This document shows positions 11,185-51,838 of a stretch of 64,000 bases of DNA, in pieces. The stretch's first letter is position 1; every line of letters begins with the position of its first letter. The notes beneath the pieces were generated by a model. It ran no database searches and was not told the DNA's origin. It was given only the letters and a program-made list of their open reading frames with translations. Origin of the DNA: Escherichia coli (GTDB lineage Bacteria; Pseudomonadota; Gammaproteobacteria; Enterobacterales; Enterobacteriaceae); NCBI GenBank assembly GCA_902500125.1, contig GCA_902500125.1_4132.1, one strand, 5' to 3'. A program made the position numbers and the translations under genes.

Positions 11185-11421
<237 letters not shown>

Positions 11422-11428
11422 CTAAATC

Positions 11429-11733
11429 GGGCCATTAGCTCACGGTGGTTAGAGCAAACGACTCATCGACAATGGTGACTTTCATCAGTAATGGTGATTG
11501 AAAAACTGGATGAATTCAGGGAAATCTTAACACGTAATGGTGATGACAATCCTGAGCCAAGCCCAATAAGCGTATTGGGAAGGTGCAGAGACTAGATGGT
11601 ACAGTACGATCTTACTGTGTAATACATCATTAGCGTCCGGCATCCCTATGGGATGATGATATAGTCCGTACTATAGTGAAAACTATAGATTATACGAATC
11701 GTTAGGTACTGTGTTCGACTCACAGATGGCTCA
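11429..11733 (+). tRNA. tRNA with CAT anticodon (Met or Ile2) interrupted by group I intron
   Basis: 5' half GGGCCAT-TA-GCTC..GAGC-A-AACGA-CTCAT; 3' half AA-TCGTT-AGGTA-CTGTG-TTCGACT-CACAG-ATGGCTC-A; all four stems pair only after removing ~230 nt from the anticodon loop. Confidence 0.7.
11467..11696 (+). ncRNA. group I intron in tRNA anticodon loop (no ORF)
   Basis: follows exon U, ends in G; core-like elements AATTCAGGGAAA (P), AATCCTGAGC (Q), CAGAGACTA (R), GATATAGTCC (S) with complementary P4/P7 strands. Confidence 0.65.
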
Positions 11734-11752
11734 CAAACTTTGAAATAAAATA

Positions 11753-12457
11753 ATGAAAATAAAATTAGAATATCCATACAGTAATGATTGGGAGAATGGG
11801 TATATACAGATAAACCCTGAAGGTAGAAGAACTGTAATACTTTATAATTCTCCAACTGATAGAAGCAGTACTCAATATGCCAGATATCTATTAGCAGTAC
11901 AAGAAGGTAGATATTTAACTGAGTCTGAAGAAGCAGACCACATTGATAATGATTTCACAAATGATGATTTGTCAAATTTGCAAATACTTCATGTTGATGA
12001 ACATCGTTATAAAACACATAAGAATGGTGTGCAAGCACGATATGATTCATTTGTATGTGCTTGTTGTAATATGGAATTTACCCGTAGGCATACTAAAGTG
12101 AAATCATATACAAAATATTGTAGTGTTGAGTGTTCACAAAAAATGGTCAAGCCTCCTTCTAATACAAAGGGTGGTGAAACATCTGTTGATTATGAAAAGG
12201 TAAAAGAATATATTAACCAAGGTTTATTAGATACTGAAATTGCTAAAATAATGAATATTAGTTCAGGTTCAGTACTGAATTATAGAACCAAAAATAATAT
12301 ACCATCTAAGAAATTTGCAAACGTAAAACGTTTAGAAGATAACATAGAAGATATCAAACAACGTTTGAATAATGGTGAGAAAAAAGTTAGTATATATGAA
12401 AGTTATGGTGCTTCCAAAAATGTGTTTGCTAGATTTTTGAAAAGACATGGCTTATAA
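11753..12457 (+). CDS. HNH homing endonuclease-like protein
   Basis: track ORF; EADHIDNDFTNDDLSNLQILHVDEHRYKTH HNH-type motif plus Cys-rich KYCSVECS; immediately downstream of intron-containing tRNA. Confidence 0.65.
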   Translation: MKIKLEYPYSNDWENGYIQINPEGRRTVILYNSPTDRSSTQYARYLLAVQEGRYLTESEEADHIDNDFTNDDLSNLQILHVDEHRYKTHKNGVQARYDSFVCACCNMEFTRRHTKVKSYTKYCSVECSQKMVKPPSNTKGGETSVDYEKVKEYINQGLLDTEIAKIMNISSGSVLNYRTKNNIPSKKFANVKRLEDNIEDIKQRLNNGEKKVSIYESYGASKNVFARFLKRHGL

Positions 12458-23412: not shown

Positions 23413-23835
23413 ATGTTCACACTAAGTAATGCAAAATATCTTTTTCTTATTAGTATTATTGGTTGGGTTATGGCTCCAGTGCTAAATGCACTGGGGTTTT
23501 CCGATGAACATAAACTTTTAAATGTTTCAGGTTTAATTCAGGGTATTTCATGGTATACATTAATTACATTTTCAGTGTGCATCAATACATTTGCCCGTGA
23601 ACATCGACGTTTGTTATATCTGAAAGTATTTGGAACTACCCGATATAGTTTTGTTTACACTTTCATTTTAGTACCGTGTATGTTATATGCATTTGTATTT
23701 GATTACTATACATATCTATGGGTATGTGGAACTATGTTTGTTATGTTGGAATACATCAGAACTGTTCAAAACTCATATGCCGATGAATTTCATGATCTAG
23801 AAGTTAAACGAAAATTAACGGAGCTAAACAAATGA
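23413..23835 (+). CDS. multi-pass membrane protein
   Basis: track ORF; several hydrophobic segments. Confidence 0.5.
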   Translation: MFTLSNAKYLFLISIIGWVMAPVLNALGFSDEHKLLNVSGLIQGISWYTLITFSVCINTFAREHRRLLYLKVFGTTRYSFVYTFILVPCMLYAFVFDYYTYLWVCGTMFVMLEYIRTVQNSYADEFHDLEVKRKLTELNK

Positions 23836-24257
23836 GAGGTTATAATAAGATTTGTATTTTTGTATTTTTAGTTTGTGCATTCAATTCGTTTGGTTACTAC
23901 TGTACAGAAAATAATATTTCATATGGTTTAAATCCTTTGTGGTTTACAATTTCCAATGTAGCACAAATTGGTATTGCTCTTATGTCTGCACTTATGTTCT
24001 GTCCAATTGTCACTATGGATACTGATCATGAAAGGCTTGGATTTCTCCGTGATACTGGAGACGAACCTTACAGTAGATTGATTGTGTTGTATCCATTTAT
24101 TGTTATTTTAGGTACTAACATCCAACTTGGGTCATTATCTAATAGTGTTACATCAGCAGCTATTGCTATATTTGCATTCACATTTTTTATGGTACACAAA
24201 TCAGTACTTAATTGGTATATCACAAAAATGGCAGAAGAAGGTACTAAAAATACTTGA
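23832..24257 (+). CDS. multi-pass membrane protein
   Basis: track ORF; several hydrophobic segments; ATGA overlap. Confidence 0.5.
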   Translation: MRGYNKICIFVFLVCAFNSFGYYCTENNISYGLNPLWFTISNVAQIGIALMSALMFCPIVTMDTDHERLGFLRDTGDEPYSRLIVLYPFIVILGTNIQLGSLSNSVTSAAIAIFAFTFFMVHKSVLNWYITKMAEEGTKNT

Positions 24258-32629: not shown

Positions 32630-33292
32630 ATGTTAGTTAATCTTAATTTCATCACTTCTCCTGATTGGGCATTGCGTGGTGTTTCTTTGAACTTTAAAGA
32701 AACTAATTTCGACTACATTGGTGATTGTACTTTAGTTAATGCTACATTTGATCCTCATCATCCTTTTTGGGCTGAAATTCATGATCCTAATGTAAACAAT
32801 AGTACATCTGTTATGACTATTGTACAGACGAAACATACAGGTATCCTCGCAGGTTACAGACCAGGACATGCGATTGAACACTTCACTGATTATGATGTAG
32901 TAGATGAGTATCCAATGATCCATGAAGATGGAAGTTTATACACGTCAGAAGACTTCCGTGCTATCTTTAATAGTACTGATGACATTCTACCAAGTGGTCG
33001 TCCACGCCCTGAGTCTTATCTTATGCACTCGTCTTATGGTGTAGCAGATACGCTTGAACAGATTTTGACGAAGTACAAGAACCTTATTGAAGGTCCTGAA
33101 GAAATTGTCATGTGCTATCATCCAGTACTGAAGTCTGACCAACCAGAGAGTGGTGGGTGGCGTTGGCATAAGAATGGTGAGTACATCGGTACTAAGCGTA
33201 GTAAAGAACGCTTTGAGTACTTGTATGATGAGCCAGATGTTGAGGTTGTTTTATGTTATAATTTTCTTAAGGTGAAAAAGAAATGTATCTAG
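32630..33292 (+). CDS. hypothetical protein (220 aa)
   Basis: track ORF; RBS GAGGATA. Confidence 0.55.
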   Translation: MLVNLNFITSPDWALRGVSLNFKETNFDYIGDCTLVNATFDPHHPFWAEIHDPNVNNSTSVMTIVQTKHTGILAGYRPGHAIEHFTDYDVVDEYPMIHEDGSLYTSEDFRAIFNSTDDILPSGRPRPESYLMHSSYGVADTLEQILTKYKNLIEGPEEIVMCYHPVLKSDQPESGGWRWHKNGEYIGTKRSKERFEYLYDEPDVEVVLCYNFLKVKKKCI

Positions 33293-33525
33293 TATTGAGT
33301 TTTGTAGTTGCATTATTGTTTATGTTCTACCCTACACTAGTAGCAGTAGCCACTAAACGAAAGCTGGTGGATATCACTACTGTATTCTTGCTAAACGTGG
33401 CACTCGTTCTAGTGTCTATTATCATTCCCGTGAGCTTTACGGTTATTGATATTATTTCGGTATTACTCTTCGTGTTAAGTTATCTTATGCTTATTGAAGA
33501 AACAAATGTTGACAAACGTTCGTAG
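33283..33525 (+). CDS. small membrane protein
   Basis: track ORF; hydrophobic throughout. Confidence 0.5.
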   Translation: MYLVLSFVVALLFMFYPTLVAVATKRKLVDITTVFLLNVALVLVSIIIPVSFTVIDIISVLLFVLSYLMLIEETNVDKRS

Positions 33526-33582
33526 TACTGTATAATGGTTCCTGTAGTCTGAAACTTAACACTTAAACTTGAGGTAAAAAAT

Positions 33583-33909
33583 ATGCTATCAGTACTAATT
33601 TCAATTCCGTCTTTAATTCTGATTTGGCTTCTGGTTTACGAATGCTTTATTACTGATGATAATGATAAAAAAGAGTTCTCTGAGTTGTTTATGCTTGATT
33701 CACCGATTGTGCGTATTTTCTATACAGTCGTTGTGGTTTCAGTAATTGTATGGGTTTTGAGTTTTATCTTCCCACTCGGTGCAGTAGTTAAAACTTTGGA
33801 TTTAGTTGAGAACTTTGTTGCAATTATGTGGCTAATCAAAGCACTATTTGCAGGAAATGTTAAAATTTGGATTGATATTATCAAATTCAAGTTCACGAAT
33901 AAGATGTAA
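33583..33909 (+). CDS. small membrane protein
   Basis: track ORF; RBS GAGGTAAAA; hydrophobic segments. Confidence 0.5.
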   Translation: MLSVLISIPSLILIWLLVYECFITDDNDKKEFSELFMLDSPIVRIFYTVVVVSVIVWVLSFIFPLGAVVKTLDLVENFVAIMWLIKALFAGNVKIWIDIIKFKFTNKM

Positions 33910-34358: not shown

Positions 34359-34736
34359 ATGGTAAACACTATTTTACTTTTGTTGTTGAATATTCCAATT
34401 ATTCTGTCTTTTTTAATTTCTATTTTTATGGCAGGATATTGTTTAGTTGCAGTAATTCATTTCATTTTAACAAACAAATATGTCCTAATTTCTAAGCTTG
34501 ATTCTATTTTTGCTTGCGATTCGATTGCTTATAACTTGTGGTTAATTTGTTCTTGCATTATGGGAGTAACTTTCCTTCTGTATGTATTTGATGTCCTTGA
34601 CCAAAAGTTCGTATATATCAGTACTGGATTGGCTCTTTATCCTGCTACGTGGTACTTGATTTACGTTGGTGATATATGGTATAGTACTTATAAAGAATAT
34701 CAGTACAAGAAATCACTTAACGTTGGAGGAAAATAA
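34359..34736 (+). CDS. multi-pass membrane protein
   Basis: track ORF. Confidence 0.5.
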   Translation: MVNTILLLLLNIPIILSFLISIFMAGYCLVAVIHFILTNKYVLISKLDSIFACDSIAYNLWLICSCIMGVTFLLYVFDVLDQKFVYISTGLALYPATWYLIYVGDIWYSTYKEYQYKKSLNVGGK

Positions 34737-38520: not shown

Positions 38521-38553
38521 GGTTGACTAAGGTCAGCCCTTTGTTGTATCATA
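38521..38553 (+). terminator. terminator/promoter module (GGTTGACTAAGGTCAGCC variant)
   Basis: hairpin plus T-rich tail; -10-like TATCAT 18 bp after TTGACT. Confidence 0.5.
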
Positions 38554-38703: not shown

Positions 38704-38967
38704 ATGGCTGAAACATTATCACTATATGCGTTAGTACTGTTATTTGTCGGATTTCTTCCCGCACTCATTACAGCCATTCGTGTTGTTAAACATGAAGCTG
38801 CATTGATTGTATGTAGTATTGGGTCGAACATTCTATTGTATTTCTTTTTGACAAATACTATTGTACTGTTTGCTTTCTTTATCATGATTCTGTGGGTACT
38901 TGTAATTCTCGGATTCTTCATTTGGTCATTGGTTGATCCTAAGAAAAAATCAGGAGAAGTGAAATGA
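38704..38967 (+). CDS. multi-pass small membrane protein
   Basis: track ORF. Confidence 0.5.
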   Translation: MAETLSLYALVLLFVGFLPALITAIRVVKHEAALIVCSIGSNILLYFFLTNTIVLFAFFIMILWVLVILGFFIWSLVDPKKKSGEVK

Positions 38968-39282: not shown

Positions 39283-39312
39283 GGTTGACTTCGGTCAACC
39301 TTTATATATAAT
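39283..39312 (+). terminator. terminator/promoter module (GGTTGACTTCGGTCAACC)
   Basis: hairpin with TTGACT in stem; TATAAT 16 bp downstream. Confidence 0.55.
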
Positions 39313-41118: not shown

Positions 41119-41127
41119 TAAAACAAA

Positions 41128-41158
41128 AGGTTGACTTCGGTCAGCCTTTTTTGTTATG
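41128..41158 (+). terminator. terminator/promoter module (GGTTGACTTCGGTCAGCC plus T6)
   Basis: identical hairpin to 35280 copy; TATGAT 18 bp after TTGACT. Confidence 0.6.
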
Positions 41159-41188
41159 ATGTTGGTATTAACTACAGAGGATAAAGTA

Positions 41189-41830
41189 ATGACTAAGCAA
41201 GACATATTCAAAACTTTAATTGACATTTTGCGTCCATCAAAAACTCGTTGTGCGATGGAGTTTGATATTCCTTATGCTGAACGCGTAATCTTTCCACAAG
41301 TTAAAGCTGCTGGACTTACTTTGCTTGGAATGGGGATGTACTCTGTAGTAGTTGAACATAAAAACTATCCTGGACGTGCATTTAAAGTAACCACTTCACG
41401 CTGGGATGGTTTTCGTGCTTATGCAAAGTACTGCATTGAAAACGCAGGAACCAAGTTTCTTCCAGTGATCTACAGTGCCAACGAACAAGGAAACTTTGGA
41501 TGGTATGAGATGGACAAGTACTATCCTATAATTAAACAAAAAAATAATTATGATGACTTTGTTAGTACTAAAATTGGAGATTTATATTCTTATGCACATG
41601 CTGGTCAGTACGCTACTTCAGTGAATGATATGCGTGGAAATTCTGAAGAGATTGCTATTGCAACGGTCGCTGCTAACATCATGAAAGAGTTTCACGGGCG
41701 TTTTGTACCAGACATTCATTCAAGTAATGTGATGATGGATAAAGATGGCAATGTATTCATTACTGATCCTCTTTCGTGTGATGTACGTAGAGAAATACCA
41801 GTTACTGAAGAAGATCCAGTTTTTTATTGA
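41189..41830 (+). CDS. protein-kinase-like protein (atypical)
   Basis: track ORF 41156..41830 trimmed to ATG after AGAGGATAA; Gly-rich loop LGMGMYSVV, AFKV lysine, catalytic-loop-like DIHSSNVMMDKDGNVFITDP. Confidence 0.45.
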   Translation: MTKQDIFKTLIDILRPSKTRCAMEFDIPYAERVIFPQVKAAGLTLLGMGMYSVVVEHKNYPGRAFKVTTSRWDGFRAYAKYCIENAGTKFLPVIYSANEQGNFGWYEMDKYYPIIKQKNNYDDFVSTKIGDLYSYAHAGQYATSVNDMRGNSEEIAIATVAANIMKEFHGRFVPDIHSSNVMMDKDGNVFITDPLSCDVRREIPVTEEDPVFY

Positions 41831-41891
41831 CAGAACTGATGTTCTGGTGTATTCTTAATAAACCATAAAAATTGCGGTAAAGGATAAAATC

Positions 41892-42173
41892 ATGCGTTCA
41901 TTTGAAAACTTAATAGGTAAGCATCTTTTATCTGAAATTGATGCAGACGTTAAAGAATTATCCAAATCAAAAAGTTACATTCATTTGGATGAACTGTTTA
42001 TTAAGTACGGTGAGATTGGTTTTAAGTCATTATTTGTTTTTACTATGAAAGTACATAGTTTAAAGTACTTCGATTTGAGTTCTAAAGATGGTGAACCGAA
42101 TCTATATTACATGTATTACCTTAAGAACAAAGATGAAGCTAATACATTACTCTCTGAATATATATTGGGGTAA
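41892..42173 (+). CDS. hypothetical protein
   Basis: track ORF; RBS AAAGGATAA. Confidence 0.55.
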   Translation: MRSFENLIGKHLLSEIDADVKELSKSKSYIHLDELFIKYGEIGFKSLFVFTMKVHSLKYFDLSSKDGEPNLYYMYYLKNKDEANTLLSEYILG

Positions 42174-42175
42174 AA

Positions 42176-42514
42176 ATGGAACAATATTTTGAATTAATAA
42201 ACAAAGTATCATTTTATGTAGTATCTTTGGTTTGGGTGTATTATATGTTTTGCTATATTATTGCATTCTTCCGATATACTACTTTATATGAACGTATCTA
42301 CTATGATGCCCCAATTTCATTCTTGATGTTTTGTGCATGTACGTGGGGAATATTAGAAGTACTGATATGTGGGTATAGTACTGATGAATTAAATCTGGTA
42401 TCGGTGTTGACTGGGTTTTCATTTGTTGTTATGATAGCTGCCGTTCCAGTATGGTTGTTCTTTGGACTAGTTCATCGCATTGATATATGGCGTTCTAATA
42501 TCCCTGAAAAGTAA
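42176..42514 (+). CDS. 3-TM small membrane protein, paralog family A
   Basis: track ORF; 3 hydrophobic helices; C-terminal basic tail ..RSNIPEK. Confidence 0.55.
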   Translation: MEQYFELINKVSFYVVSLVWVYYMFCYIIAFFRYTTLYERIYYDAPISFLMFCACTWGILEVLICGYSTDELNLVSVLTGFSFVVMIAAVPVWLFFGLVHRIDIWRSNIPEK

Positions 42515-42517
42515 GGA

Positions 42518-42865
42518 TTGGAAATGATTTATTACACTAACATGTTTGCCTATGCTGTTGCTTGCATTTACATTGTTTACTTCTTATTCGGTGGAGTACT
42601 GTGCTTCTTTAAGTACAAAACGTTGTTCAACCGAATGTACCCAAATCATCCAATTGTAGTTGTACTTTTGATTCTTTCAGTTTCTCAAATAATCGTTGAA
42701 ACTACAATGGGTATCAGTAGTGTACATTATAGTTTTGGCACTATAGTAATTATTACTATGCTTATTGCATACATTTTAGTACTTGGATATGGTATCTTTG
42801 GTAATATTGGTATGAAAATGTATCATCGAATTAAAACATTACGTGATAATCTACCGGAGCGTTGA
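42518..42865 (+). CDS. 3-TM small membrane protein, paralog family A
   Basis: track ORF; C-terminal ..LRDNLPER. Confidence 0.55.
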   Translation: MEMIYYTNMFAYAVACIYIVYFLFGGVLCFFKYKTLFNRMYPNHPIVVVLLILSVSQIIVETTMGISSVHYSFGTIVIITMLIAYILVLGYGIFGNIGMKMYHRIKTLRDNLPER

Positions 42866-42866
42866 T

Positions 42867-43211
42867 ATGTATAATTTGAACCTAATCTCATATATTATAA
42901 CAACACTGTTTACATTCTATGCCTTTGTTGGTATAATCCTACTGTACTTTAAATTTTATAAAGTGTTTAACCGTTTCTATCCTTCAATGGAGAATGAGTT
43001 TTTCTTTGTGTTGTACGTAGGTTACACATTAATGGCTACATGTTTCACTGTAGCCGATGGTGTCATCGGCATTAAAACTGATTCCCCAAATGGTAGTACG
43101 CTGGTTGCATTTATTCTTACTGGATTCCTTGCAACTTATATTGCCTTCATTACAACATGGTCAGTGGTTGAATTTCTCTTGCGACTACGAAAGAATATGC
43201 CGAATCGATAG
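42867..43211 (+). CDS. 3-TM small membrane protein, paralog family A
   Basis: track ORF 42843..43211 trimmed to ATG (MYNLNL); C-terminal ..LRKNMPNR. Confidence 0.55.
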   Translation: MYNLNLISYIITTLFTFYAFVGIILLYFKFYKVFNRFYPSMENEFFFVLYVGYTLMATCFTVADGVIGIKTDSPNGSTLVAFILTGFLATYIAFITTWSVVEFLLRLRKNMPNR

Positions 43212-43220
43212 GAGACATAT

Positions 43221-43475
43221 ATGTTTGCGTTGCGTAATAAAAACACTAAAGAATTATTATGTATTGATACCGTATGGGATTGTGCGGGATCAACTACAGT
43301 TCTTGAAGAAGGAACTGGATATTGCGTGTTTGTTGTTCATGATAGGAATGAACTCGAATTATTACTTGCTGAGTTCAATGCTGGTGGTAATCCTAACAGT
43401 ACTGAATACCCTGAGATTATCAATCCAGCACCACCAGGCTCTTATGAAATTCTACAACTGTGGGAGTTGAAGTAA
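43221..43475 (+). CDS. hypothetical small protein
   Basis: track ORF; RBS AGGAGA. Confidence 0.55.
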   Translation: MFALRNKNTKELLCIDTVWDCAGSTTVLEEGTGYCVFVVHDRNELELLLAEFNAGGNPNSTEYPEIINPAPPGSYEILQLWELK

Positions 43476-43855
43476 TGCGTCAAATGCACAAAGTAACCGA
43501 GCTAAACAAGCGTCTGGTTAAACAATCAATGTTCGAGGATAAAGAGTCTTATTATAACTTTAAACGTGCTGTAGAGGCTGCTATCCACATTCAGAAGCTT
43601 AAAGAACGTGGTTGTATTATTCTGGAAAATGGGTCGGAAGTTGTAACGGATGACTTTAGTGTAGCGTTTGATGTTTCACCTGACGGGACGCTATCAATGC
43701 CCCGCTTAGGAACTGGAAACATGACTGTTTGGGTTGGCTTCACTATGGGGAATGTACCTGGTACTGTGTACGTAGATGATGCGGAATTGAAAGACAGTTT
43801 CAAAAACTTATCTTATCTTGAACCACAATACGCACATGAAATGAATTTATTTTGA
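43475..43855 (+). CDS. hypothetical protein
   Basis: track ORF 43460..43855 trimmed to ATG (MRQMHK). Confidence 0.5.
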   Translation: MRQMHKVTELNKRLVKQSMFEDKESYYNFKRAVEAAIHIQKLKERGCIILENGSEVVTDDFSVAFDVSPDGTLSMPRLGTGNMTVWVGFTMGNVPGTVYVDDAELKDSFKNLSYLEPQYAHEMNLF

Positions 43856-43857
43856 GT

Positions 43858-43885
43858 TGACAAACACATTCAGTACTGTATAATG
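43858..43885 (+). promoter_or_regulatory. sigma70-type promoter TTGACAAACACATTCAGTACTGTATAATG
   Basis: consensus hexamers, TG-extended -10, CAGTACTG in spacer. Confidence 0.6.
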
Positions 43886-43931
43886 CTTATCAAGGGGATG
43901 AACTTCTCATCCCTACAATCGAGGAACTACC

Positions 43932-44486
43932 ATGATTACTTTTAAGAAAACTGCTAACCACATCCATGAAATCTACATTAACGGTCACAAAGCTGGCCTT
44001 CTTCGTTTACTCGCCCATCATCCTGATGTTACCGTATCTGATAATGAACCTAAAGATTGGCGTGTATTTTTCTTTGGAAAGTACAGTGATTTTCAAGTAT
44101 CAAACCTGAAGAACATTCGTTCAGTATGCACGTTAACTGAAATTAAAGAAAAGTTAGAAAAAGCATTGAAAACTAATCCAGATGGTGTTCTTCCACCTGA
44201 TAACTTTGTAGAGAAAGGTTATGCATTAGCTCATTTCAAAGATGGTACTATTCAATCTATCAGTACTGAATATGAATATCAATGGACTGAGTACTTCACT
44301 TATGGATCGCGTAATACATTGATGGCTTCACGTAGTAAATTGGAAGAAGTACTGACTCGTATGAATGAACGCGAACGTCAATTTTATGACAAACCAGAAA
44401 TGTGGAGTTCAACTTACATTGACCGTATTGACTATGTTATTATGACTCCAATCTTTGACACTGCTTACTATGATTCTTTGAAATAA
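43932..44486 (+). CDS. hypothetical protein
   Basis: track ORF; RBS GAGGAA. Confidence 0.55.
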   Translation: MITFKKTANHIHEIYINGHKAGLLRLLAHHPDVTVSDNEPKDWRVFFFGKYSDFQVSNLKNIRSVCTLTEIKEKLEKALKTNPDGVLPPDNFVEKGYALAHFKDGTIQSISTEYEYQWTEYFTYGSRNTLMASRSKLEEVLTRMNERERQFYDKPEMWSSTYIDRIDYVIMTPIFDTAYYDSLK

Positions 44487-44702
44487 GGATAACTTATATG
44501 AAACTACGTACTCGTAATCGACTGATGGATGCACTGTACCATGAACAGCTTTCACTGAATGAAGTGAAGCGACAGTTAATGTACACATATCTGTTACCCG
44601 ATCGCATTGCAAAACAACGTGCTAAAGAATTGCTGAAAGAAGCAATCGAGTACTGGGAATCTGATTCGTACTAATTGTCACGTTAATTAAGTGAGGCGAT
44701 AA

Positions 44703-44954
44703 ATGAAAATTTTATTAGTTCTAATACTACTAATTGTTTTACCATTTACGTTAGTATCCCCTGAACTTGCATGGAATGTGTTTGTGTACTTAGTATGTAC
44801 TATTGTAGTAAATGGTATCTTGTTCTTAGTTCTATTCATAAATGGAATAGGACACGGTGGAGGATGGACCAGTACTGCTGATATTGTACATAAAACCACT
44901 ATGTCTTTATTTGTAATGTGGAATTTATTCTGGACTTGGTTTGTGTTCTTCTAA
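44703..44954 (+). CDS. small membrane protein
   Basis: track ORF; hydrophobic throughout. Confidence 0.5.
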   Translation: MKILLVLILLIVLPFTLVSPELAWNVFVYLVCTIVVNGILFLVLFINGIGHGGGWTSTADIVHKTTMSLFVMWNLFWTWFVFF

Positions 44955-44962
44955 TTAAAAAT

Positions 44963-45334
44963 ATGAATATAGATTTGAAAGGTGCAACCCGAACTGTCAT
45001 ACTCATTGGGGAATATGCTATCAAGATTCCAACCTTTAAAAGTTGGAAGCTATTCTTAACAGGGATGATAGCTAACCTCAATGAACGTTCGTGGATGCAG
45101 TACTCCAATCGTAGTGATAGTAGTATCTGTCCTACGTTGTGGTCATCATGTACTGGACTAGTAACTGTACAGAAACGTTGTAAGCCAGTGCAACATAGGG
45201 GTTTATTTTGGGTGGAGTTGTGTGCTTTAGCATTGAATTCAGAGTTAAGTACTGACTTCTTCTATTCAGATGCGAAGCCAGAAAACTTTGGGTATCTGTG
45301 TGGTAAGTTGGTTAAACTTGATTATGGAGATTAA
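44963..45334 (+). CDS. mini protein-kinase-like protein (atypical)
   Basis: track ORF 44918..45334 trimmed to ATG (MNIDLKG); GATRTVILIGEYAIKIP, SDAKPENFGY and KLDYGD resemble kinase G-loop/VAIK, catalytic loop and DFG. Confidence 0.4.
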   Translation: MNIDLKGATRTVILIGEYAIKIPTFKSWKLFLTGMIANLNERSWMQYSNRSDSSICPTLWSSCTGLVTVQKRCKPVQHRGLFWVELCALALNSELSTDFFYSDAKPENFGYLCGKLVKLDYGD

Positions 45335-45335
45335 T

Positions 45336-45605
45336 ATGTACGCATTGTATAATAAAGAAAAGAAACGATTTGCTAAGGTTGAAATTTCGATTGATACATT
45401 TGACATGTTGGAGTACTGTATTGTAACGGACTTATATGCTAACTTGTATTACGTTCTTGATGACGTATCAGTACTGCAACGATTGCTTGAGAATTCCAAA
45501 AGTCAATGCCAGGACATCCATGATGGTTCATCTTATGAAACACCTGAGTGTCCCCACGGGCAACTCGATGGGTATGAGATTGTTAAGTTGGGAATTGTTG
45601 AGTAA
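45336..45605 (+). CDS. hypothetical protein
   Basis: track ORF 45270..45605 trimmed to ATG after GGAGA RBS. Confidence 0.5.
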   Translation: MYALYNKEKKRFAKVEISIDTFDMLEYCIVTDLYANLYYVLDDVSVLQRLLENSKSQCQDIHDGSSYETPECPHGQLDGYEIVKLGIVE

Positions 45606-45670
45606 AAGGTATTGACACCGTACTCATTTAACTGTATTATGTATGTACACCAACTAATGAGGAATCGGAA

Positions 45671-46030
45671 ATGGCATCTTTATCTGAAATCACTGAACTG
45701 AATCCACTGGTAATTAGTACTGTTCAACGCACCAAGACGTTTTACTTCCGTCCTGCTGATGGATGGAAACGTGGAATGAATGGTGACTATCGAGTACTGG
45801 AAGATTCGCTCATCGAGCGTATCAACTCTGAACTACAGAAGTATGAAGGTGTTAAAGTTGTCCGTTCAACTTCTCGTTATTTTGAGTACTACATTGAGTC
45901 TTCAACTGTAAATGAAAACTCATCATTCTCGGTGGATAACACTGATATTCTTCGCAATGCAGTTGGTTTGCTATGCAACATTGCAGAAGAAATGGGATTA
46001 ACTATCACCACAATGAGTGAGTTAGAATAG
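45671..46030 (+). CDS. hypothetical protein
   Basis: track ORF; RBS GAGGAA. Confidence 0.55.
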   Translation: MASLSEITELNPLVISTVQRTKTFYFRPADGWKRGMNGDYRVLEDSLIERINSELQKYEGVKVVRSTSRYFEYYIESSTVNENSSFSVDNTDILRNAVGLLCNIAEEMGLTITTMSELE

Positions 46031-46041
46031 AATAAAAAAAG

Positions 46042-46072
46042 GGTTGACTTAGGTCGGCCCTTTTGCTATTAT
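46042..46072 (+). terminator. terminator/promoter module (GGTTGACTTAGGTCGGCC variant)
   Basis: hairpin plus T-rich tail; TATTAT 17 bp after TTGACT. Confidence 0.5.
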
Positions 46073-46100
46073 ATCTATATCGAAACGAAGGAGACAAACC

Positions 46101-46874
46101 ATGACCCGTCAAGAGAAAGCAATCCAAATCGAAAAAAACTTCAATAGCATGATGGCTGCACTGGAATGCCTTCTTGATACACAAGCTAACTCTATCAACT
46201 CTCTGATCGTATCAGGTAAAGGTGGTGTTGGTAAAACTTATAACGTTGACCAACGGTTGCAGAAAGCTGATGATAACTTTGAAATCGACTACAAGAAAAT
46301 CAGTGGTAAAGTAACTACTTTGGGTCTGTACGAAGCACTGTATCGTTCACGTCATGCCGCATCAGTACTGTTACTTGATGACGTTGATATCTTCTCTGAC
46401 GAGACTAATATTGATTTGCTTAAAGCTGTGTTGGATACGTCAGAGAAGCGTGTAGTTTCTTACGCGACTTCTGCTAAGTACCTGGAACAGCAGGGTATCC
46501 CTAAGCAGTTTGAATTCCGTGGTAAAGTAATCTTTCTGACTAACAAAAACCTGTCACAGATTGCTAAAGGTAAAAGCAGCTTAGCACCACACATCGATGC
46601 ACTGATCACTCGTAGTATCTTTGTTGACCTGCAACTGTTCACCAACGAAGAAGTGATGATTCACATTGAGAACATCATGAACAAAACTAACATCCTTGAA
46701 AACAATGGTGTTAACAAAAATGGTTGTAAAGCAATCCTGAATTGGATGCTGAACAACGAAGAACGTTTGCGTAGTCCATCACTGCGTATGCCAGTACTGA
46801 TCGCTGGTTTGTATAATAAATTCCCATACGATTGGGAATCAATGGCAGAGAATATGTTCCTTGAGAAAATTTAA
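46101..46874 (+). CDS. P-loop NTPase
   Basis: track ORF; Walker A SGKGGVGKT and Walker-B-like VLLLDDVD; RBS AAGGAGA. Confidence 0.6.
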   Translation: MTRQEKAIQIEKNFNSMMAALECLLDTQANSINSLIVSGKGGVGKTYNVDQRLQKADDNFEIDYKKISGKVTTLGLYEALYRSRHAASVLLLDDVDIFSDETNIDLLKAVLDTSEKRVVSYATSAKYLEQQGIPKQFEFRGKVIFLTNKNLSQIAKGKSSLAPHIDALITRSIFVDLQLFTNEEVMIHIENIMNKTNILENNGVNKNGCKAILNWMLNNEERLRSPSLRMPVLIAGLYNKFPYDWESMAENMFLEKI

Positions 46875-46941
46875 TTACATGTATTGACAGTACTACACTA
46901 TGGTAGTACTATAACTTAATATTCACCACCGGAGATACGAT

Positions 46942-47280
46942 ATGCTTGAGTTTTTTAATTCAGATACAATGATTAGTATTACTTTGATTTATCTGTTTGG
47001 TTTTTTCTTTTATCATGCACTGGTTGTAGTACTGTGGTATTTTAAAAAGAAAATTGTTTTTAAACTGTATCCAGTAAGGAATTCATCACTAGTTCTTTAC
47101 ACACTAGTTCAAGGTTTGTTTGCAATTGTTGGTCTTATGGCACACTTAATTTATTGTGCCAATCCTCACTTGAACTCAATCTCACAATATATTGTATTCT
47201 TTGGGTTGTTCATTTGGTTAGTTGTATACTTAATCCATCTCATTATTCATGGTAGAGATAAAATTCGCGGAGACTTCTAA
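46942..47280 (+). CDS. 3-TM small membrane protein, paralog family B
   Basis: track ORF; first of 7 tandem overlapping paralogs with hydrophobic core and basic C-tail. Confidence 0.55.
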   Translation: MLEFFNSDTMISITLIYLFGFFFYHALVVVLWYFKKKIVFKLYPVRNSSLVLYTLVQGLFAIVGLMAHLIYCANPHLNSISQYIVFFGLFIWLVVYLIHLIIHGRDKIRGDF

Positions 47281-47627
47281 TGTTTGAAGCTTATCTTGAG
47301 TTTTTAAGGAGTAGTTCAGTTGCACATTCACTTGCAGGGATTATTCTAACAACTTATGTATCATTTTGGGTAGTTATGTTTCTAGGATGGTATTTTAAAC
47401 GACAATTCTATAAACGTAATGGTGAAGATTTTATGAATTCTGCCATTAATCAATCGTTGTTTGCATCAACATTGATTGCATGTATTGTAGCAACACTCAC
47501 AGGAAAGGTACTACCAGCTTTTTCCGCAGTTTACGGCACACTTGGGATGATATGTTTAACTTTTATATTGACCATTAAAATTTGTTGTGTTATGATTGAA
47601 CTTCGAAATAAGATACCGGAGGAATGA
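47280..47627 (+). CDS. 3-TM small membrane protein, paralog family B
   Basis: track ORF; C-terminal ..LRNKIPEE resembles family A tails. Confidence 0.55.
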   Translation: MFEAYLEFLRSSSVAHSLAGIILTTYVSFWVVMFLGWYFKRQFYKRNGEDFMNSAINQSLFASTLIACIVATLTGKVLPAFSAVYGTLGMICLTFILTIKICCVMIELRNKIPEE

Positions 47628-47962
47628 TGGAGTACTTTATTGATTTACTGCCGTGGTATATGAAAGTTAGTACCATGTACTATATTATTAGTGCTGGATT
47701 CTACTTTCTGATGTGGTTCTTTAAACGACCAATTTCAGTATTCATCGCTGATAACATGCTGCAATTAAAATTACACGCATGGTTTGGTATGGCGATGATT
47801 ATGCCTATTATTCACTACTCAATGATTAGTAGAGGTTTCCGTTCTAATGGTGAACCAATTGTATTAGTATTCTATTGGGGTTCAACTATTGCATATGTAA
47901 GTTTGTTGTTGTTCCCAGTCGTTCATAAGTTACGTGCTAAAGTTCCTGATGCGAGGTACTAA
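47624..47962 (+). CDS. 3-TM small membrane protein, paralog family B
   Basis: track ORF; C-terminal ..LRAKVPDARY. Confidence 0.55.
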   Translation: MMEYFIDLLPWYMKVSTMYYIISAGFYFLMWFFKRPISVFIADNMLQLKLHAWFGMAMIMPIIHYSMISRGFRSNGEPIVLVFYWGSTIAYVSLLLFPVVHKLRAKVPDARY

Positions 47963-48276
47963 TGGATATAGTAACATTGATTTACACGTTGTATTCATTC
48001 TATTTCATTATGTGTTGGGTTGGATTTTTATTTGTACTCAAGATGTTTGATTATGTTGAAAAACAGATAAAAGAATTTTGTATTCCTTTTATCGGTTCAA
48101 CCATTATTAGTGTTTCTTGTGTGTATTTTTTGGTTTTTGATCCACCAGATAACACTGCAATGATTGACTTGATGTTACTACCAACAACTGTTACTTTTTT
48201 ATGTAGTCTGATGCCGCCGATTAGCCGTGGACTAACAGAATTTAGACGCAATCAAAAGCGTAAACGAGGGATGTAA
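47962..48276 (+). CDS. 3-TM small membrane protein, paralog family B
   Basis: track ORF; C-terminal ..RRNQKRKRGM. Confidence 0.55.
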   Translation: MDIVTLIYTLYSFYFIMCWVGFLFVLKMFDYVEKQIKEFCIPFIGSTIISVSCVYFLVFDPPDNTAMIDLMLLPTTVTFLCSLMPPISRGLTEFRRNQKRKRGM

Positions 48277-48644
48277 TGGAAATTGCTCTTATTATCTTAA
48301 CTGCTATGCTGTTTATTAGTACTGTGGTTATAATTGGTAAATTCTTTTGTGTATCATTTTTAGAAACGGTATACGATGAAATTGCTGATGATTATGAATT
48401 ACAAGCCGGATTTTTCATTACGTATTGGCTTAGTTTATTTTGTCTAGTCATTGCTTGGATTTTACATATCTTTAAATGGGGTATGGTAGACGGTGATCCT
48501 ATTATGGCAATTATTGTTCTAGTGTTTGGTATCCTTGGTGGTGCAGTGCATAATCTAATGGTTATCTGGCAAACTGTTCAATATGTTTTGGTTCCCTATT
48601 TCGAAAAGATGCACAGTACAATTAAAAAACGTAAACGAGGTTAG
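48276..48644 (+). CDS. 3-TM small membrane protein, paralog family B
   Basis: track ORF; C-terminal ..IKKRKRG. Confidence 0.55.
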   Translation: MEIALIILTAMLFISTVVIIGKFFCVSFLETVYDEIADDYELQAGFFITYWLSLFCLVIAWILHIFKWGMVDGDPIMAIIVLVFGILGGAVHNLMVIWQTVQYVLVPYFEKMHSTIKKRKRG

Positions 48645-48645
48645 T

Positions 48646-49008
48646 ATGAACGGGATAGAATTATCTTTCGTTGGTCAATTACTAGTAATGGCGTATACAT
48701 TTATCTTCTCACTGAATGCATTCGTGTGCATTGGGAAGTACTTCCATAAGCGACCATTATCAAATATATATGATGTAATCCAAAAGAGATATAGTCCAGC
48801 ATATACTGTGTTGGGTACAGTATTCAATTTTGGTTTTATTGTATTAATAATTGGACTGTTCACATCCTCTTTGAATACAATAACCTTCGGTCTTATGATA
48901 TGTTCATTGGTATTAGCCGTAATTATATGTTGTTTAGTACTGCACCTTGTGGTACTATTGTATATAAAGATCTCTGAAATCCACCAACGTTTGGGTATGA
49001 GGAAATAA
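48646..49008 (+). CDS. 3-TM small membrane protein, paralog family B
   Basis: track ORF 48583..49008 trimmed to ATG (MNGIELSF). Confidence 0.5.
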   Translation: MNGIELSFVGQLLVMAYTFIFSLNAFVCIGKYFHKRPLSNIYDVIQKRYSPAYTVLGTVFNFGFIVLIIGLFTSSLNTITFGLMICSLVLAVIICCLVLHLVVLLYIKISEIHQRLGMRK

Positions 49009-49009
49009 T

Positions 49010-49381
49010 ATGAGTTACCGTGAGATATTTTCCATTATTTCAATTATTATGTTCAGTACTGGAACACTGGTATGGTTATTATACTTCTTCTGTATTAATC
49101 CAGTGTATAATATGTTATGTAATATTAAATCAAGTGCCGGATATATCACTTTTATGGTCTTTATGGGATATTATTGTCTAAGCATTTTAGGTGTTGTTTT
49201 GGTTGTTATATTTGATGTGGGACCAAATAGTGATGGTATGGAAATACATGAATTAATAACCATGTTTGGATGTATGATACCAACAGCACTACTGTTTGTA
49301 GCTACTGGTAGTGGATTGATAAAATTATATAATTATTTAAAATCCATTCATAATTCCATTCATAATAAGCGTATGTCATAA
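49010..49381 (+). CDS. 3-TM small membrane protein, paralog family B
   Basis: track ORF; C-terminal ..HNKRMS. Confidence 0.55.
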   Translation: MSYREIFSIISIIMFSTGTLVWLLYFFCINPVYNMLCNIKSSAGYITFMVFMGYYCLSILGVVLVVIFDVGPNSDGMEIHELITMFGCMIPTALLFVATGSGLIKLYNYLKSIHNSIHNKRMS

Positions 49382-49423
49382 TAAAAAATCCAGTACTATT
49401 AAGTACTGGATGTATAAGGAGTT

Positions 49424-50086
49424 ATGATGAAATCAAAATTAGGTTTGTTTTATAAAAACTATTTTGTTAAACAACGTAAATTTATAAAAAAATATTTCTC
49501 TGGCGAGAAGTCTAGTCCTATAATCTTTAAAAGACCAAGTTATAATACTTACTTAGCTGGTGCTAAACAGTCTAAGAAATTTATTACTCTTTTACATAAA
49601 AACAAAATTAAAGCTTCTTATGTTGAAACGAGAAGAAACTCATCAATAACTCCTGGTGATTTTATTGAGTACGGATGTTTCAATATTAAGTACAATGATA
49701 ATACATACTTTATGGATATTGATTGTAATACATCCAATCTTTTTAACATTGTAGTAAATCCATTAAAACAATATAATGTTTATGGTGATTCTATTATCAA
49801 ATTAATCAAAAACAAAGATAGCTTTGATTTTGAAATAAATGTTTTAGATGATAATTTTGACGAAGTACCAGTAAACCCTGAAATCTGTGATATTTTAAAC
49901 AGTTTAAAAGGTAGTACCTACACTATATCATCTGATTTAATGTTTCAGTACTCATTAATCCATAAAGATATTGAAAAGTATATTGAATGCTCCAAAATTT
50001 TGAATTATCTTTACGATGAATTTAAAAAGAGTTCTAAAATAACCGCATACACTTTGTACAATATTCCTAAAATGGTGAATCTTTGA
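49424..50086 (+). CDS. hypothetical protein, EExFQxSTV-motif family (divergent)
   Basis: track ORF; SSDLMFQYSLIHKD motif. Confidence 0.55.
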   Translation: MMKSKLGLFYKNYFVKQRKFIKKYFSGEKSSPIIFKRPSYNTYLAGAKQSKKFITLLHKNKIKASYVETRRNSSITPGDFIEYGCFNIKYNDNTYFMDIDCNTSNLFNIVVNPLKQYNVYGDSIIKLIKNKDSFDFEINVLDDNFDEVPVNPEICDILNSLKGSTYTISSDLMFQYSLIHKDIEKYIECSKILNYLYDEFKKSSKITAYTLYNIPKMVNL

Positions 50087-50490
50087 CAAATACAGTACTG
50101 GCAACTCCACCGTCTGTAACATATTGTCCAGTACTGTAAATTTGTATACCATCGGTTAAGTAAGTTCTGTATAAAGTTGCTGTAACATATACGTTATTCA
50201 TATTCATCTCTATTGGTAGTACACATTTGGTATAGGCTGAGACATCTGTTTGTGTACCTATACCTAATTGACCTGCGTTATCGCCTGTGTTATAACCAGT
50301 TGCGTAAACACCTAATGAAGTTATAATATGATTAGAAAAATATGAATAACCCAAACTCTTGAGATTCTCTACTGTACAACGTACCATCTGACATAAGGGC
50401 AAAAACTGTTGTATCAGATGAAGCTATTTTTGTTACAGAAGGTTGTATGTTCTGTTTTGATGATGTGATAATTCTTCGAAAGGGTAGCAT
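50067..50490 (-). pseudogene. degenerate remnant of MLPF/RCC1-like paralog
   Basis: ATG at ~50490 encodes MLPFRRI..FALMSDGTLY then stop after ~52 codons; C-terminal ORF 50067..50402 (other frame, TTG start) matches C-terminus of 58650..59816; own cassette upstream. Confidence 0.5.
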
Positions 50491-50561
50491 TGTATCCTCC
50501 AAATGTAAATCGTTATTATATTTAGGACAAAAAAATGCCAGTACAAAATACTGGCTTTATT
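50491..50561 (-). promoter_or_regulatory. terminator/-10-only promoter/RBS cassette (variant)
   Basis: hairpin GCCAGTATTTTGTACTGGC, T-run, TAAATATAAT box and GGAGG before ATG. Confidence 0.45.
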
Positions 50562-51767
50562 TTATATACCACGACTGGGTATTTTATATAATTGAAATTT
50601 AGTGTAATAATCAGAAACTGTTGTACCTGTCGCTTGTGGGATATAGCCACTCAAATACACATCCCCTTGATTATCCATATACACATTTGTACATTCACTT
50701 GGACAGAATAACTCGATGCTGCCAACTTTAGGTGCATCAACTGGAACTACAAATGTAGTACTTGATGTTGTATTACCGCGACCGAGCCTACCATATGTGT
50801 TTATACCACACATATAAAGTGAATTGTTAGTTTTAACCGTAAGACCACCATATGTTAATGAATTTGATTTCATTATCATATCATCTGATATTGGTAGAGT
50901 GGAGATTGTAGATAATACTGTCCCTGATGAAGCGGCTGAACCATTACCCAAGTTACCTTCCGATTGAATCCCACTTGCACGAACTGTATATGTATTATTC
51001 GTGTTGTGTTTAGATACAACCCATGATGCACTCCCACCAAGTTCATAATGTATAACAGTATTGTTGGCTAATGCACCCATTTGTGTCCATACTCTAATGT
51101 TAGTTTCACCATTACTTATACCAAGTGAACCCCATGTGTTTTGACCAGTTACCCAAAGTGTTTTATCAATTTTCTGCACAATCACTGCACTTGAACCTGT
51201 TTTTACACTATCCACATTCGTATTAATTGAAGTAAATGTTGATAATCTTGTGGTTGTGTTATTACCAAAATATCCCTGTGTATTTGCCCCCATTCCATAT
51301 AGCGTACCATTTTGAAGTAAAACAAAAATACCCTCCCCTACAATTTGAATGTCCTTAATTTGCGACAATTGTGTTGCATTGAATACTGATGTAAAATATG
51401 AAGTACAATCAGTATAAGTACTGACAGTACTTAATCCTGCACCAATAGCTCTACCTACGCCACTGTAATAAAATTTATTATCTTCGGTTTGGATTAAATT
51501 AAAAGAACCTTGGGCTGTTCTAAAACGTTTTACATTTTGGTATATTAAAGTCCACTCTTTTACTTTCGCATTAGGTACACCATTTCCGAATCCATAGTTT
51601 TGTGAACTAGTTCCACCTATACCCATTAAGTCTCCATTTTTATATAATAGTAAGAGTGCTGTTGCTGGAATAACTGACGCACTATAACCATTGTAAATAA
51701 AGATTTCTTTCACTTCAGGAACTTTCATTTTATTTGCGTATTTTATCATCCTTGGAAAAGGTAACAT
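50562..51767 (-). CDS. RCC1-like beta-propeller repeat protein with MLPF N-terminal peptide
   Basis: track ORF; N-terminus MLPFPRMIKYANK; recurring G.N..G.LG blade-like motifs every ~50 aa (motif recall). Confidence 0.7.
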   Translation of the reverse strand: MLPFPRMIKYANKMKVPEVKEIFIYNGYSASVIPATALLLLYKNGDLMGIGGTSSQNYGFGNGVPNAKVKEWTLIYQNVKRFRTAQGSFNLIQTEDNKFYYSGVGRAIGAGLSTVSTYTDCTSYFTSVFNATQLSQIKDIQIVGEGIFVLLQNGTLYGMGANTQGYFGNNTTTRLSTFTSINTNVDSVKTGSSAVIVQKIDKTLWVTGQNTWGSLGISNGETNIRVWTQMGALANNTVIHYELGGSASWVVSKHNTNNTYTVRASGIQSEGNLGNGSAASSGTVLSTISTLPISDDMIMKSNSLTYGGLTVKTNNSLYMCGINTYGRLGRGNTTSSTTFVVPVDAPKVGSIELFCPSECTNVYMDNQGDVYLSGYIPQATGTTVSDYYTKFQLYKIPSRGI

Positions 51768-51838
51768 AAAATCCTCCTTTATTCATTATACTATATTTAA
51801 TCAAAAAGAAAAGCCAGTGTTAAGTACTGGCATAAAAT
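51768..51838 (-). promoter_or_regulatory. terminator/-10-only promoter/RBS cassette
   Basis: minus strand reads GCCAGTAC..ACTGGC hairpin, T-run, GATTAAATATAGTATAATGAATAAAGGAGG, ATG. Confidence 0.55.

Follow-up and report, generated by a model that had tools for sequence, protein, structure and literature searches.

A family of small three-helix membrane proteins in tandem arrays of RaK2-like jumbo phages, with a possible role as early envelope effectors

This report concerns a stretch of DNA of 64,000 nucleotides (contig GCA_902500125.1_4132.1 of the NCBI GenBank assembly GCA_902500125.1, filed under Escherichia coli), which is referred to here as the window, and ten small genes that lie on its plus strand in two tandem clusters. 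An initial annotation, made from the letters of the sequence, had described these genes as paralogues encoding mini membrane proteins with three hydrophobic helices and a basic C-terminal tail. All ten open reading frames (ORFs) were found to be present, and their products are 104-123 aa in length. A megablast search with positions 42000-49500 of the window returned 44 phage records, and the top matches were the Escherichia phages CRJP21, phAPEC6, 121Q, and PBECO4 at 96-98% identity. The window is identified by sequence as Asteriusvirus DNA. In other words, it belongs to a 121Q/PBECO4-like myovirus, one of the 350-kb jumbo coliphages called RaK2-like.

Cluster A consists of three genes. A1 (42176..42514, 112 aa, FFR ... 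WRSNIPEK) has three transmembrane (TM) segments and matches the hidden Markov model (HMM) of the family at E=2e-24. A2 (42524..42865, 113 aa, FFK ... LRDNLPER) aligns to A1 in hhalign with a probability of 96%, and A3 (42867..43211, 114 aa, YFK ... LRKNMPNR) follows it. Cluster B consists of seven genes. These are B1 (46942..47280, 112 aa, YFK ... GRDKIRGDF), B2 (47280..47627, 115 aa, YFK ... LRNKIPEE), B3 (47624..47962, 112 aa, FFK ... LRAKVPDARY), B4 (47962..48276, 104 aa, GFLF / KMFDY ... FRRNQKRKRGM), B5 (48276..48644, 122 aa, GKFFC ... MHSTIKKRKRG), B6 (48646..49008, 120 aa, GKYFH ... IHQRLGMRK), and B7 (49010..49381, 123 aa, YFFC ... IHNSIHNKRMS). B3 is the least hydrophobic member and has an orthologue in ORF312 of Klebsiella phage RaK2 (E=2.5e-19). 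B4 is the most divergent member. B7 matches RaK2 ORF315 at E=4.9e-25 and is the B member nearest to A1, which the B7 HMM matches at E=1.3e-4. The C-terminal tails that had been quoted in the initial annotation (RSNIPEK, LRDNLPER, LRKNMPNR, LRNKIPEE, and LRAKVPDARY) are correct. For A2, an ATG start with the Shine-Dalgarno (SD) sequence TAAGGA is favored, and a TTG at 42518 is less likely. The best-supported ATG starts agree with the RefSeq record of 121Q, in which the genes are gp207-209, gp225-227, and gp230-232, and the B4 counterpart is split by a frameshift into gp228 and gp229.

The genes of each cluster are packed tightly. The claim that they overlap by 1-4 nt holds at four of the eight internal junctions, namely B1/B2, B3/B4, and B4/B5, which share the overlap TAATG, and B2/B3, which has the overlap ATGA. 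The other four junctions are short gaps of 1 nt (B5/B6, B6/B7, and A2/A3) or 9 nt (A1/A2). The further claim that the packing suits coupled translation is supported: the junctions are tight, and the SD lies inside the end of the upstream gene or, for A2, immediately beyond it. The downstream SD (GGAG or GAGG) is written by the final codons of that gene, either as Pro-Glu (CCGGAG) or as Arg-Gly (CGAGG); the SD of A2 is an exception, as it spans the stop codon of A1. Because the SD of one gene is encoded in the final codons of the gene before it, part of the basic tail is also an RNA signal.

Several GenBank records describe these loci incompletely, and the present analysis corrects them. B6 is not annotated in the records of CRJP21, SP27, UE-S1, PBECO4, and phAPEC6, and A1 (42176-42514) is not annotated in phAPEC6. 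CRJP21, SP27, and UE-S1 list instead of B6 an ORF on the minus strand that is antisense to it (48675-48863 in the window). The product names in the CRJP21 record appear to be shifted, as 'endonuclease V' stands on A1 and 'regulator of chromosome condensation' on members of cluster B.

Do the ten proteins belong to one family? Pairwise phmmer together with hhalign of shallow orthogroups gave firm links only among A1, A2, and A3 and between B1 and B0, an extra paralogue found just upstream of B1 in some relatives. Eight further pairs scored E=7e-4 to 3e-3, which is just past the best of 66 reversed-sequence controls (4e-3). In PHROGs, the ten proteins fall into seven families, i.e., phrog_19285 (A1-A3), phrog_19454 (B1), phrog_19046 (B2), phrog_27396 (B3), phrog_33258 (B4), phrog_26405 (B5), and phrog_27618 (B7), and B6 falls into none. 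A weak match of B2 is to phrog_16874, labelled 'membrane protein'. One explanation of these results is that no meaningful family exists and that the genes are unrelated hydrophobic ORFs made alike by their TM composition, or duplicates without function that are decaying. The non-significant E-values of most member pairs and the division into at least seven PHROGs families would both be expected from it.

More direct evidence on homology came from a leave-one-out test, in which each member in turn, together with its orthologues, was kept out of the family HMM and then ranked among 416 real or reversed window ORFs. The omitted member ranked first in nine of ten cases, with E-values from 3.7e-10 (for B2) to 0.013. 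B4 failed this test. An exhaustive hmmsearch of 1.84 billion representative proteins then gave 35 hits at E<=1e-3, all of 89-127 aa and matched end-to-end, of which about 25 are new divergent members. A profile widened in this way, and containing no B4-type sequence, matches B4 at E=2.7e-4 (best decoy 0.035) and the orthologues of B4 at E of about 1e-4. Furthermore, the arrays of RaK2 and of three relatives (L005, L007, and L026) each have a B4-type gene in the corresponding place. Stepwise merging of subgroups into HMMs was unstable, with decoys sometimes at the top, and the conclusions are drawn from the full leave-one-out test and the widened alignment. A word-indexed homologue search with the widened profile gave nine hits and served only to collect contigs.

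The widened alignment defines two signature motifs. Motif 1, at the end of TM1, reads [I/V][L/G][W/K][F/Y]F[K/C/H], and its F is present in 69 of the 71 aligned sequences. Motif 2, near the C-terminus, reads [L/I]xx[L/F][R/H]x[K/N][I/L]P, or in a shorter form [L/I/F][R/H]x[K/N][I/L]P, and 70 of the 71 sequences have its R/H. The invariant F and the C-terminal R/H both occur in each of the ten proteins of the window, although the context of these residues is degenerate in B4. By comparison, TM2, loop 2, and TM3 show little conservation among the paralogues, and in comparisons of orthologues their divergence is 2-3 times as fast as that of the N-terminus, TM1, and loop 1. The proposal that the ten are paralogues is borne out by the leave-one-out recovery of nine, by the connection of B4 through the widened profile, and by the near-invariant motif columns. 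On this evidence, all ten are paralogues of one old family. The explanation without a family is scarcely credible, as the leave-one-out recovery holds against reversed-sequence decoys, the exhaustive search gave only full-length hits of the same length, and the two motif columns are near-invariant. Likewise, the order of orthologues is kept across genera and dN/dS is below 0.5 for every member, as described below.

The family is new in the sense that it is absent from Pfam, fragmented in PHROGs, and not discussed in the literature searched. Scans of Pfam (with 34 members), NCBIfam, and PADLOC gave no consistent match to the members, and the genome papers on RaK2-like phages that were searched do not mention the family.

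Kyte-Doolittle analysis found three hydrophobic segments in each of the ten proteins, with B3 the weakest. Loop 1 and the C-terminal tail together carry 5-10 Lys and Arg residues, as against 0-3 in the N-terminus and loop 2, and this holds in 11 of 11 proteins (the ten and B0 of 121Q). The shared layout of three hydrophobic helices is thus confirmed as a consistent hydropathy pattern with a uniform charge pattern, and the latter, by the positive-inside rule, implies that each protein has three predicted TM helices with the N-terminus outside and the C-terminus inside (N-out/C-in). Both motifs lie at the predicted cytoplasmic face of the membrane. An AlphaFold2 model of A1, of modest confidence (pLDDT 68), contains helices at residues 2-31, 35-41, 45-65, and 74-107, i.e., three TM helices and a short helix in loop 1, in agreement with the hydropathy segments. 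A Foldseek search of the PDB with this model found no match, and searches with a three-helix-bundle fold were judged to be uninformative.

The distribution of the family is narrow. A whole-genome HMM census of 121Q located members only at 105.8-106.9 kb (three) and at 113.6-116.4 kb (eight, with B4 frameshifted), and the next best ORF scored E=0.024, which is the decoy level. The census covered 121Q except for 100,001-102,652, and the equivalent region lies inside the window, which has no further copies. A tblastn search with A2 found 33 Asteriusvirus records, and one with B3 found 45 records (32 from Escherichia, 4 from Salmonella, and 9 from Klebsiella phages). By these searches, the family is confined to jumbo phages of the RaK2-like group that infect Enterobacteriaceae.

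Within this clade, the array has a fixed address. In every lineage examined, its conserved upstream neighbor is a homologue of the T4-type gene nrdC.10, which encodes a P-loop protein (46101..46874, plus strand, phrog_1250). Cluster B of the window and the arrays of 121Q, RaK2, L005, L006-8, and L025/26 lie directly downstream of nrdC.10; cluster A is a separate, smaller locus. In RaK2, nrdC.10 is followed by one soluble ORF and then by eight members (ORF309-316), and about 10 kb upstream there is one A-type gene (ORF280). The uncultured relatives carry nine consecutive members with one or two more upstream (L005), six (L006-8), or twelve (L026). The first member begins 1-2 nt past the nrdC.10 stop codon in L005 (9285-9287), L006 (9999-10001), and L026 (3241-3243), and this spacing implies translational coupling of the array to nrdC.10. 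In the window, unlike in these three, a 67-nt gap with its own promoter separates nrdC.10 from B1. The nrdC.10 homologue itself is widespread, with 1310 phage records in tblastn and about 41% identity in T4 and T6. It has a weak Pfam match to AAA_16, and no function for nrdC.10 was found in the literature searched. The nrdC.10 neighborhoods of XaC1, PA5oct, and T6 contain no family members, and in XaC1 nrdC.10 directly adjoins genes for proteins like the regulator of chromosome condensation (RCC1-like genes).

Best-hit mapping of paralogues gave the same order in different genera. RaK2 ORF311 corresponds to B1, ORF312 to B3, ORF313 to B4, ORF314 to B5, and ORF315 to B7, and the order in L005 is similar. 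Since the paralogue types stand in the same order across genera, the paralogues predate the genera and each has been kept. The family is therefore ancient as well as clade-restricted. Its members are real genes under purifying selection: nearly every Asteriusvirus genome of good quality that was examined has them intact, and their dN/dS values, calculated against two other lineages, are 0.03-0.47, like those of the neighboring genes.

The copies are, at the same time, individually dispensable. B0 is present in four of nine Asteriusvirus genomes (121Q, CRJP21, UE-S1, and SP27) and is lacking in the window. In the Salmonella SD phages, B2 is deleted in SD-1_S14 and broken by a frameshift in SD-15_S21, and A3 of SD-1_S14 has an in-frame deletion. 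The initial annotation had pointed to copy-number variation among related phages as something to look for, and these cases, together with the split B4 of 121Q and arrays of 6-12 genes, demonstrate it. The record of CMSTMSU, which is unverified and has many frameshifts, was left out of the presence/absence comparison.

One model suggested by this organization is that the members form a hetero-oligomeric assembly in the inner membrane, such as a channel or platform, in which the P-loop protein NrdC.10 may also take part. It would account for the order B3-B4-B5-(B6)-B7 common to Asteriusvirus, RaK2, and L005, for junctions with overlaps of 1-4 nt or gaps of 1 nt and an SD that lies inside the upstream gene, and for arrays that begin 1-2 nt past the nrdC.10 stop in L005, L006, and L026. 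The conserved motifs are all predicted to be cytoplasmic, as they would be on a shared docking surface. However, members are individually lost, split, and duplicated and number 6 to 12, cluster A lies apart from nrdC.10, and in RaK2 a soluble ORF separates nrdC.10 from the array. Moreover, nrdC.10 occurs in >1300 phage records, and the three examined outside the clade (T6, PA5oct, and XaC1) are without the family. Such an assembly is considered unlikely. More doubtful still is its specific form, in which the array would encode the diversified subunits of a membrane machine built by the phage, and the FFK and RxKIP motifs would dock NrdC.10.

When are the clusters expressed? A sigma70-like promoter (TTGACA-17-TATTCT, 10/12 consensus match) with a small hairpin in its spacer was found at 41827..41855 on the plus strand, in a 61-nt gap. 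It lies upstream of A1-A3 and of a gene for a soluble protein of 93 aa (41892..42173, plus strand, phrog_37917), which is the first gene of the cluster A unit and ends 2 nt before A1. A second such promoter (TTGACA-17-TACTAT), whose spacer contains the inverted repeat GTACTAC..GTAGTAC, lies at 46884..46912 on the plus strand, 30 nt upstream of B1. The functions of both are predicted from their sequences. A palindromic hairpin with a 10-bp stem (49388..49411) lies just after B7; as its T-run is found only on the minus strand, the hairpin does not make a convincing plus-strand terminator. A scan of 38.7-50.1 kb (match of at least 10/12, -35 element TTGAC[A/T], intergenic gaps of at least 35 nt) found sigma70-like promoters in seven of eight gaps, including those just upstream of both clusters. 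A promoter in gap after gap is typical of T4-type early regions, and this pattern makes early transcription of both clusters by host RNA polymerase likely. The published mass spectrometry (MS) list of phAPEC6 virion proteins contains none of the family members (gp012c-017c and gp028c-029c), a weak result since MS easily misses small hydrophobic proteins.

Sigma70-like promoters that lie within a G+C-rich hairpin, or that such a hairpin interrupts, were also seen at 38521-38552, 39283-39312, 41125-41160, and 46037-46072, in addition to the two described above (41827-41855 and 46884-46912). In one example, AAAAGGGTTGACTTAGGTCGGCCCTTTT is followed by TATTAT. These elements resemble the promoter-early stem-loop (PeSL) cassettes of T4-type phages.

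The initial annotation had named holin or antiholin-like timing among the roles such proteins might have. In this explanation, the members would act as holins, antiholins, or pinholins that build up in the membrane and trigger or modulate the release of a signal-anchor-release (SAR) endolysin. The predicted architecture of about 110 aa, three TM helices, N-out/C-in topology, and a charged C-terminal tail is that of a class I holin. No holin is annotated in 121Q, and one of 34 members has a weak, sub-threshold match to Phage_holin_2 (E=5.9e-4). In addition, the endolysin of the RaK2 group is described as having an N-terminal TM segment that forms a SAR-like domain (CBB paper, PMC5259590). The genetic evidence points the other way. 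In 121Q, the Rz-like spanin gene gp511 is at 245.3 kb and the lysozyme gene gp532 at 254.2 kb, whereas the family is at 105.8-116.4 kb, so that some 130-150 kb separate the clusters from the lysis genes. The clusters have promoters of the early, sigma70-like type, ten or more paralogues are conserved, and individual members are dispensable. The Pfam scan of 34 members gave no consistent match to a curated holin family, and hhalign against lambda S gave a probability of 0.4%. A holin role is unlikely, and little weight is given to it.

A second explanation is takeover of the host, in which each paralogue would bind and inhibit a separate inner-membrane protein of the host, e.g., of the divisome, a transporter, a respiratory complex, or a protease, and so reprogram the cell, with no exclusion of other phages. 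Small phage membrane proteins that act as host inhibitors, such as SPO1 gp56 and the Kil-type proteins, are known. The early-type promoters fit this explanation, as do the gene for a T7-gp0.7-type protein kinase that adjoins cluster A (41156-41830, plus strand), the membrane topology, the variable TM2-TM3 module, and the purifying selection on each paralogue. Against it, isolates without individual members have no obvious cost, and scans of Pfam and NCBIfam found no homology to known inhibitors. It is rather doubtful as an account of the family, and sequence alone does not separate it from exclusion or anti-defence.

The reading we favor, tentatively, is that the proteins are early accessory effectors of the inner membrane, of the exclusion or anti-defence type, and are not concerned with lysis. 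Superinfection exclusion, like membrane remodelling, had also been among the possibilities raised, as speculation, at the outset. In this model, the host sigma70 RNA polymerase would transcribe both clusters early, as tightly packed and translationally coupled operons. The proteins would insert in the inner membrane of the host and act as individually dispensable effectors that modify the envelope of the infected cell, each directed by its variable TM2-loop2-TM3 module to a separate target. The likely purpose would be to shield the long infection of a jumbo phage from the entry of secondary phages or from host defences that act at the membrane. Exclusion or anti-defence is preferred because the genes look early and accessory, because most of the differences between them fall in the membrane and periplasmic portions, and because the phages that carry them have long infection cycles. 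The adjacent T7-type kinase gene supports early effectors, and the variable B0, the deleted or frameshifted B2 of the SD phages, the split B4, and the range of 6-12 copies support accessory action by each member independently. A precedent is offered by the small inner-membrane exclusion proteins T4 Imm, P22 SieA, and HK97 gp15, which are made early or constitutively.

Several points weigh against this model. Searches of Pfam, NCBIfam, PHROGs, and PADLOC found no homology of the members to exclusion, immunity, or anti-defence proteins. The residues conserved across the family would face the cytoplasm, which is not the expected site of a block to injection, and the PE and RG codons, which form part of the C-terminal motif, double as the SD of the next gene and may therefore owe their constraint to the RNA rather than to the protein. 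To our knowledge, exclusion proteins are single-copy and do not form ten-membered arrays. The conserved order of the paralogues and their close coupling could also be explained by a complex of several subunits. Lastly, early timing is read only from consensus promoter matches, and no transcriptome of Asteriusvirus or Alcyoneusvirus was found in the literature searched.

The two clusters lie within a long run of small plus-strand genes, mostly without assigned function, which includes the kinase gene; beyond it lie minus-strand RCC1-like genes (50067-64000 of the window). In 121Q, cluster B is directly followed by 13 RCC1-like genes of the minus strand. Between the clusters, two plus-strand genes (43221-43475 and 45336-45605) encode small soluble proteins of 84 and 89 aa, a pair of paralogues that each match phrog_8563, labelled function unknown. 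Compared with L001 (6685-10058), the window lacks at 45605-46101 the denV (endonuclease V) gene and a homing-endonuclease block. These sit in 121Q, CRJP21, and others between the homologue of the gene at 45336 and nrdC.10, an interval that is a hot spot for insertions and deletions within Asteriusvirus. Small membrane proteins are common throughout the accessory region, which has further small multi-TM ORFs that the HMM places outside the family (plus strand, 23413-24257, 33283-33909, 34359-34736, 38704-38967, and 44703-44954). Those at 33583-33909, 33283-33525, 38704-38967, and 44703-44954, among others, were tried as members and were rejected by the family HMM.

Elsewhere in the window, a tRNA-Arg(ACG) gene (11429-11734, plus strand) was found by ARAGORN, with introns allowed, to have its anticodon loop interrupted by a 230-nt intron. 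The gene overlaps a strong Rfam match to the group I intron RF00028 (99 bits, 11374-11688), and an ORF of 234 aa that follows (11753-12457) possibly encodes a homing endonuclease. At the equivalent place, 121Q has an uninterrupted tRNA-Met gene. It is uncommon for a phage tRNA gene to contain a group I intron.

Few classes of gene are as poorly understood as those for small phage membrane proteins. Those that have been studied, i.e., holins, Imm and Sie proteins, and inhibitors of division or transport, control key steps of infection. The present analysis merges at least seven PHROGs families of 'unknown' proteins into one, with motifs, a predicted topology, and a fixed address downstream of nrdC.10. 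Its hosts are defined, as the phages are jumbo phages of E. coli, Salmonella, and Klebsiella, which are candidates for therapy. The conservation of a battery of 6-12 paralogues implies a distinct role for each copy. If the members are exclusion or anti-defence effectors, they would bear on the compatibility of phages in cocktails and on host range. If they form a complex, it would be a new membrane apparatus, and a version that docks NrdC.10 would give the widespread T4-type nrdC.10 its first function. The family lends itself readily to experiment, which could uncover either a diversified battery for protection of the envelope or a new membrane complex.

How does the family compare with known systems? 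Tandem expansion of small accessory membrane proteins is familiar in phages; what is new here is the unification of the family, the definition of its motifs, and the link to nrdC.10, and the array stands out by its size, its age, and the conservation of its order. The corresponding PHROGs families contain the same proteins and their orthologues under the labels function unknown or 'membrane protein', but they are kept separate there, whereas here they are joined by two signature motifs and a conserved position in the array. The accessory half of the RaK2-like genome has other tandem expansions. In 121Q, these are the 13 RCC1-like genes, about 17 genes of about 60 aa (gp249-265, 131.3-135.2 kb), and about 23 genes of about 70 aa (gp319-341, 155.7-160.8 kb). 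Their products are unrelated to the three-helix family, and RCC1-like proteins are associated with the phAPEC6 virion, whereas the family is undetected in virions. Class I holins such as lambda S105 are alike in size, in three TM helices, and in the N-out/C-in topology and short charged cytoplasmic tail predicted here. However, they show no sequence relationship to the family, which has no linkage to endolysin or spanin genes, early-type promoters, ten or more copies, and no dual-start motif. T4 Imm, P22 SieA, and HK97 gp15, which come from lytic or temperate phages, are likewise small multi-TM proteins; they are found in the inner membrane and are made ahead of the late genes, a location and a timing that are predicted for the family, and they are accessory and dispensable in the laboratory. 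They differ in being single-copy and without homology to the members, whereas the family forms an ancient array of 6-12 genes whose conserved motifs are predicted to lie in the cytoplasm.

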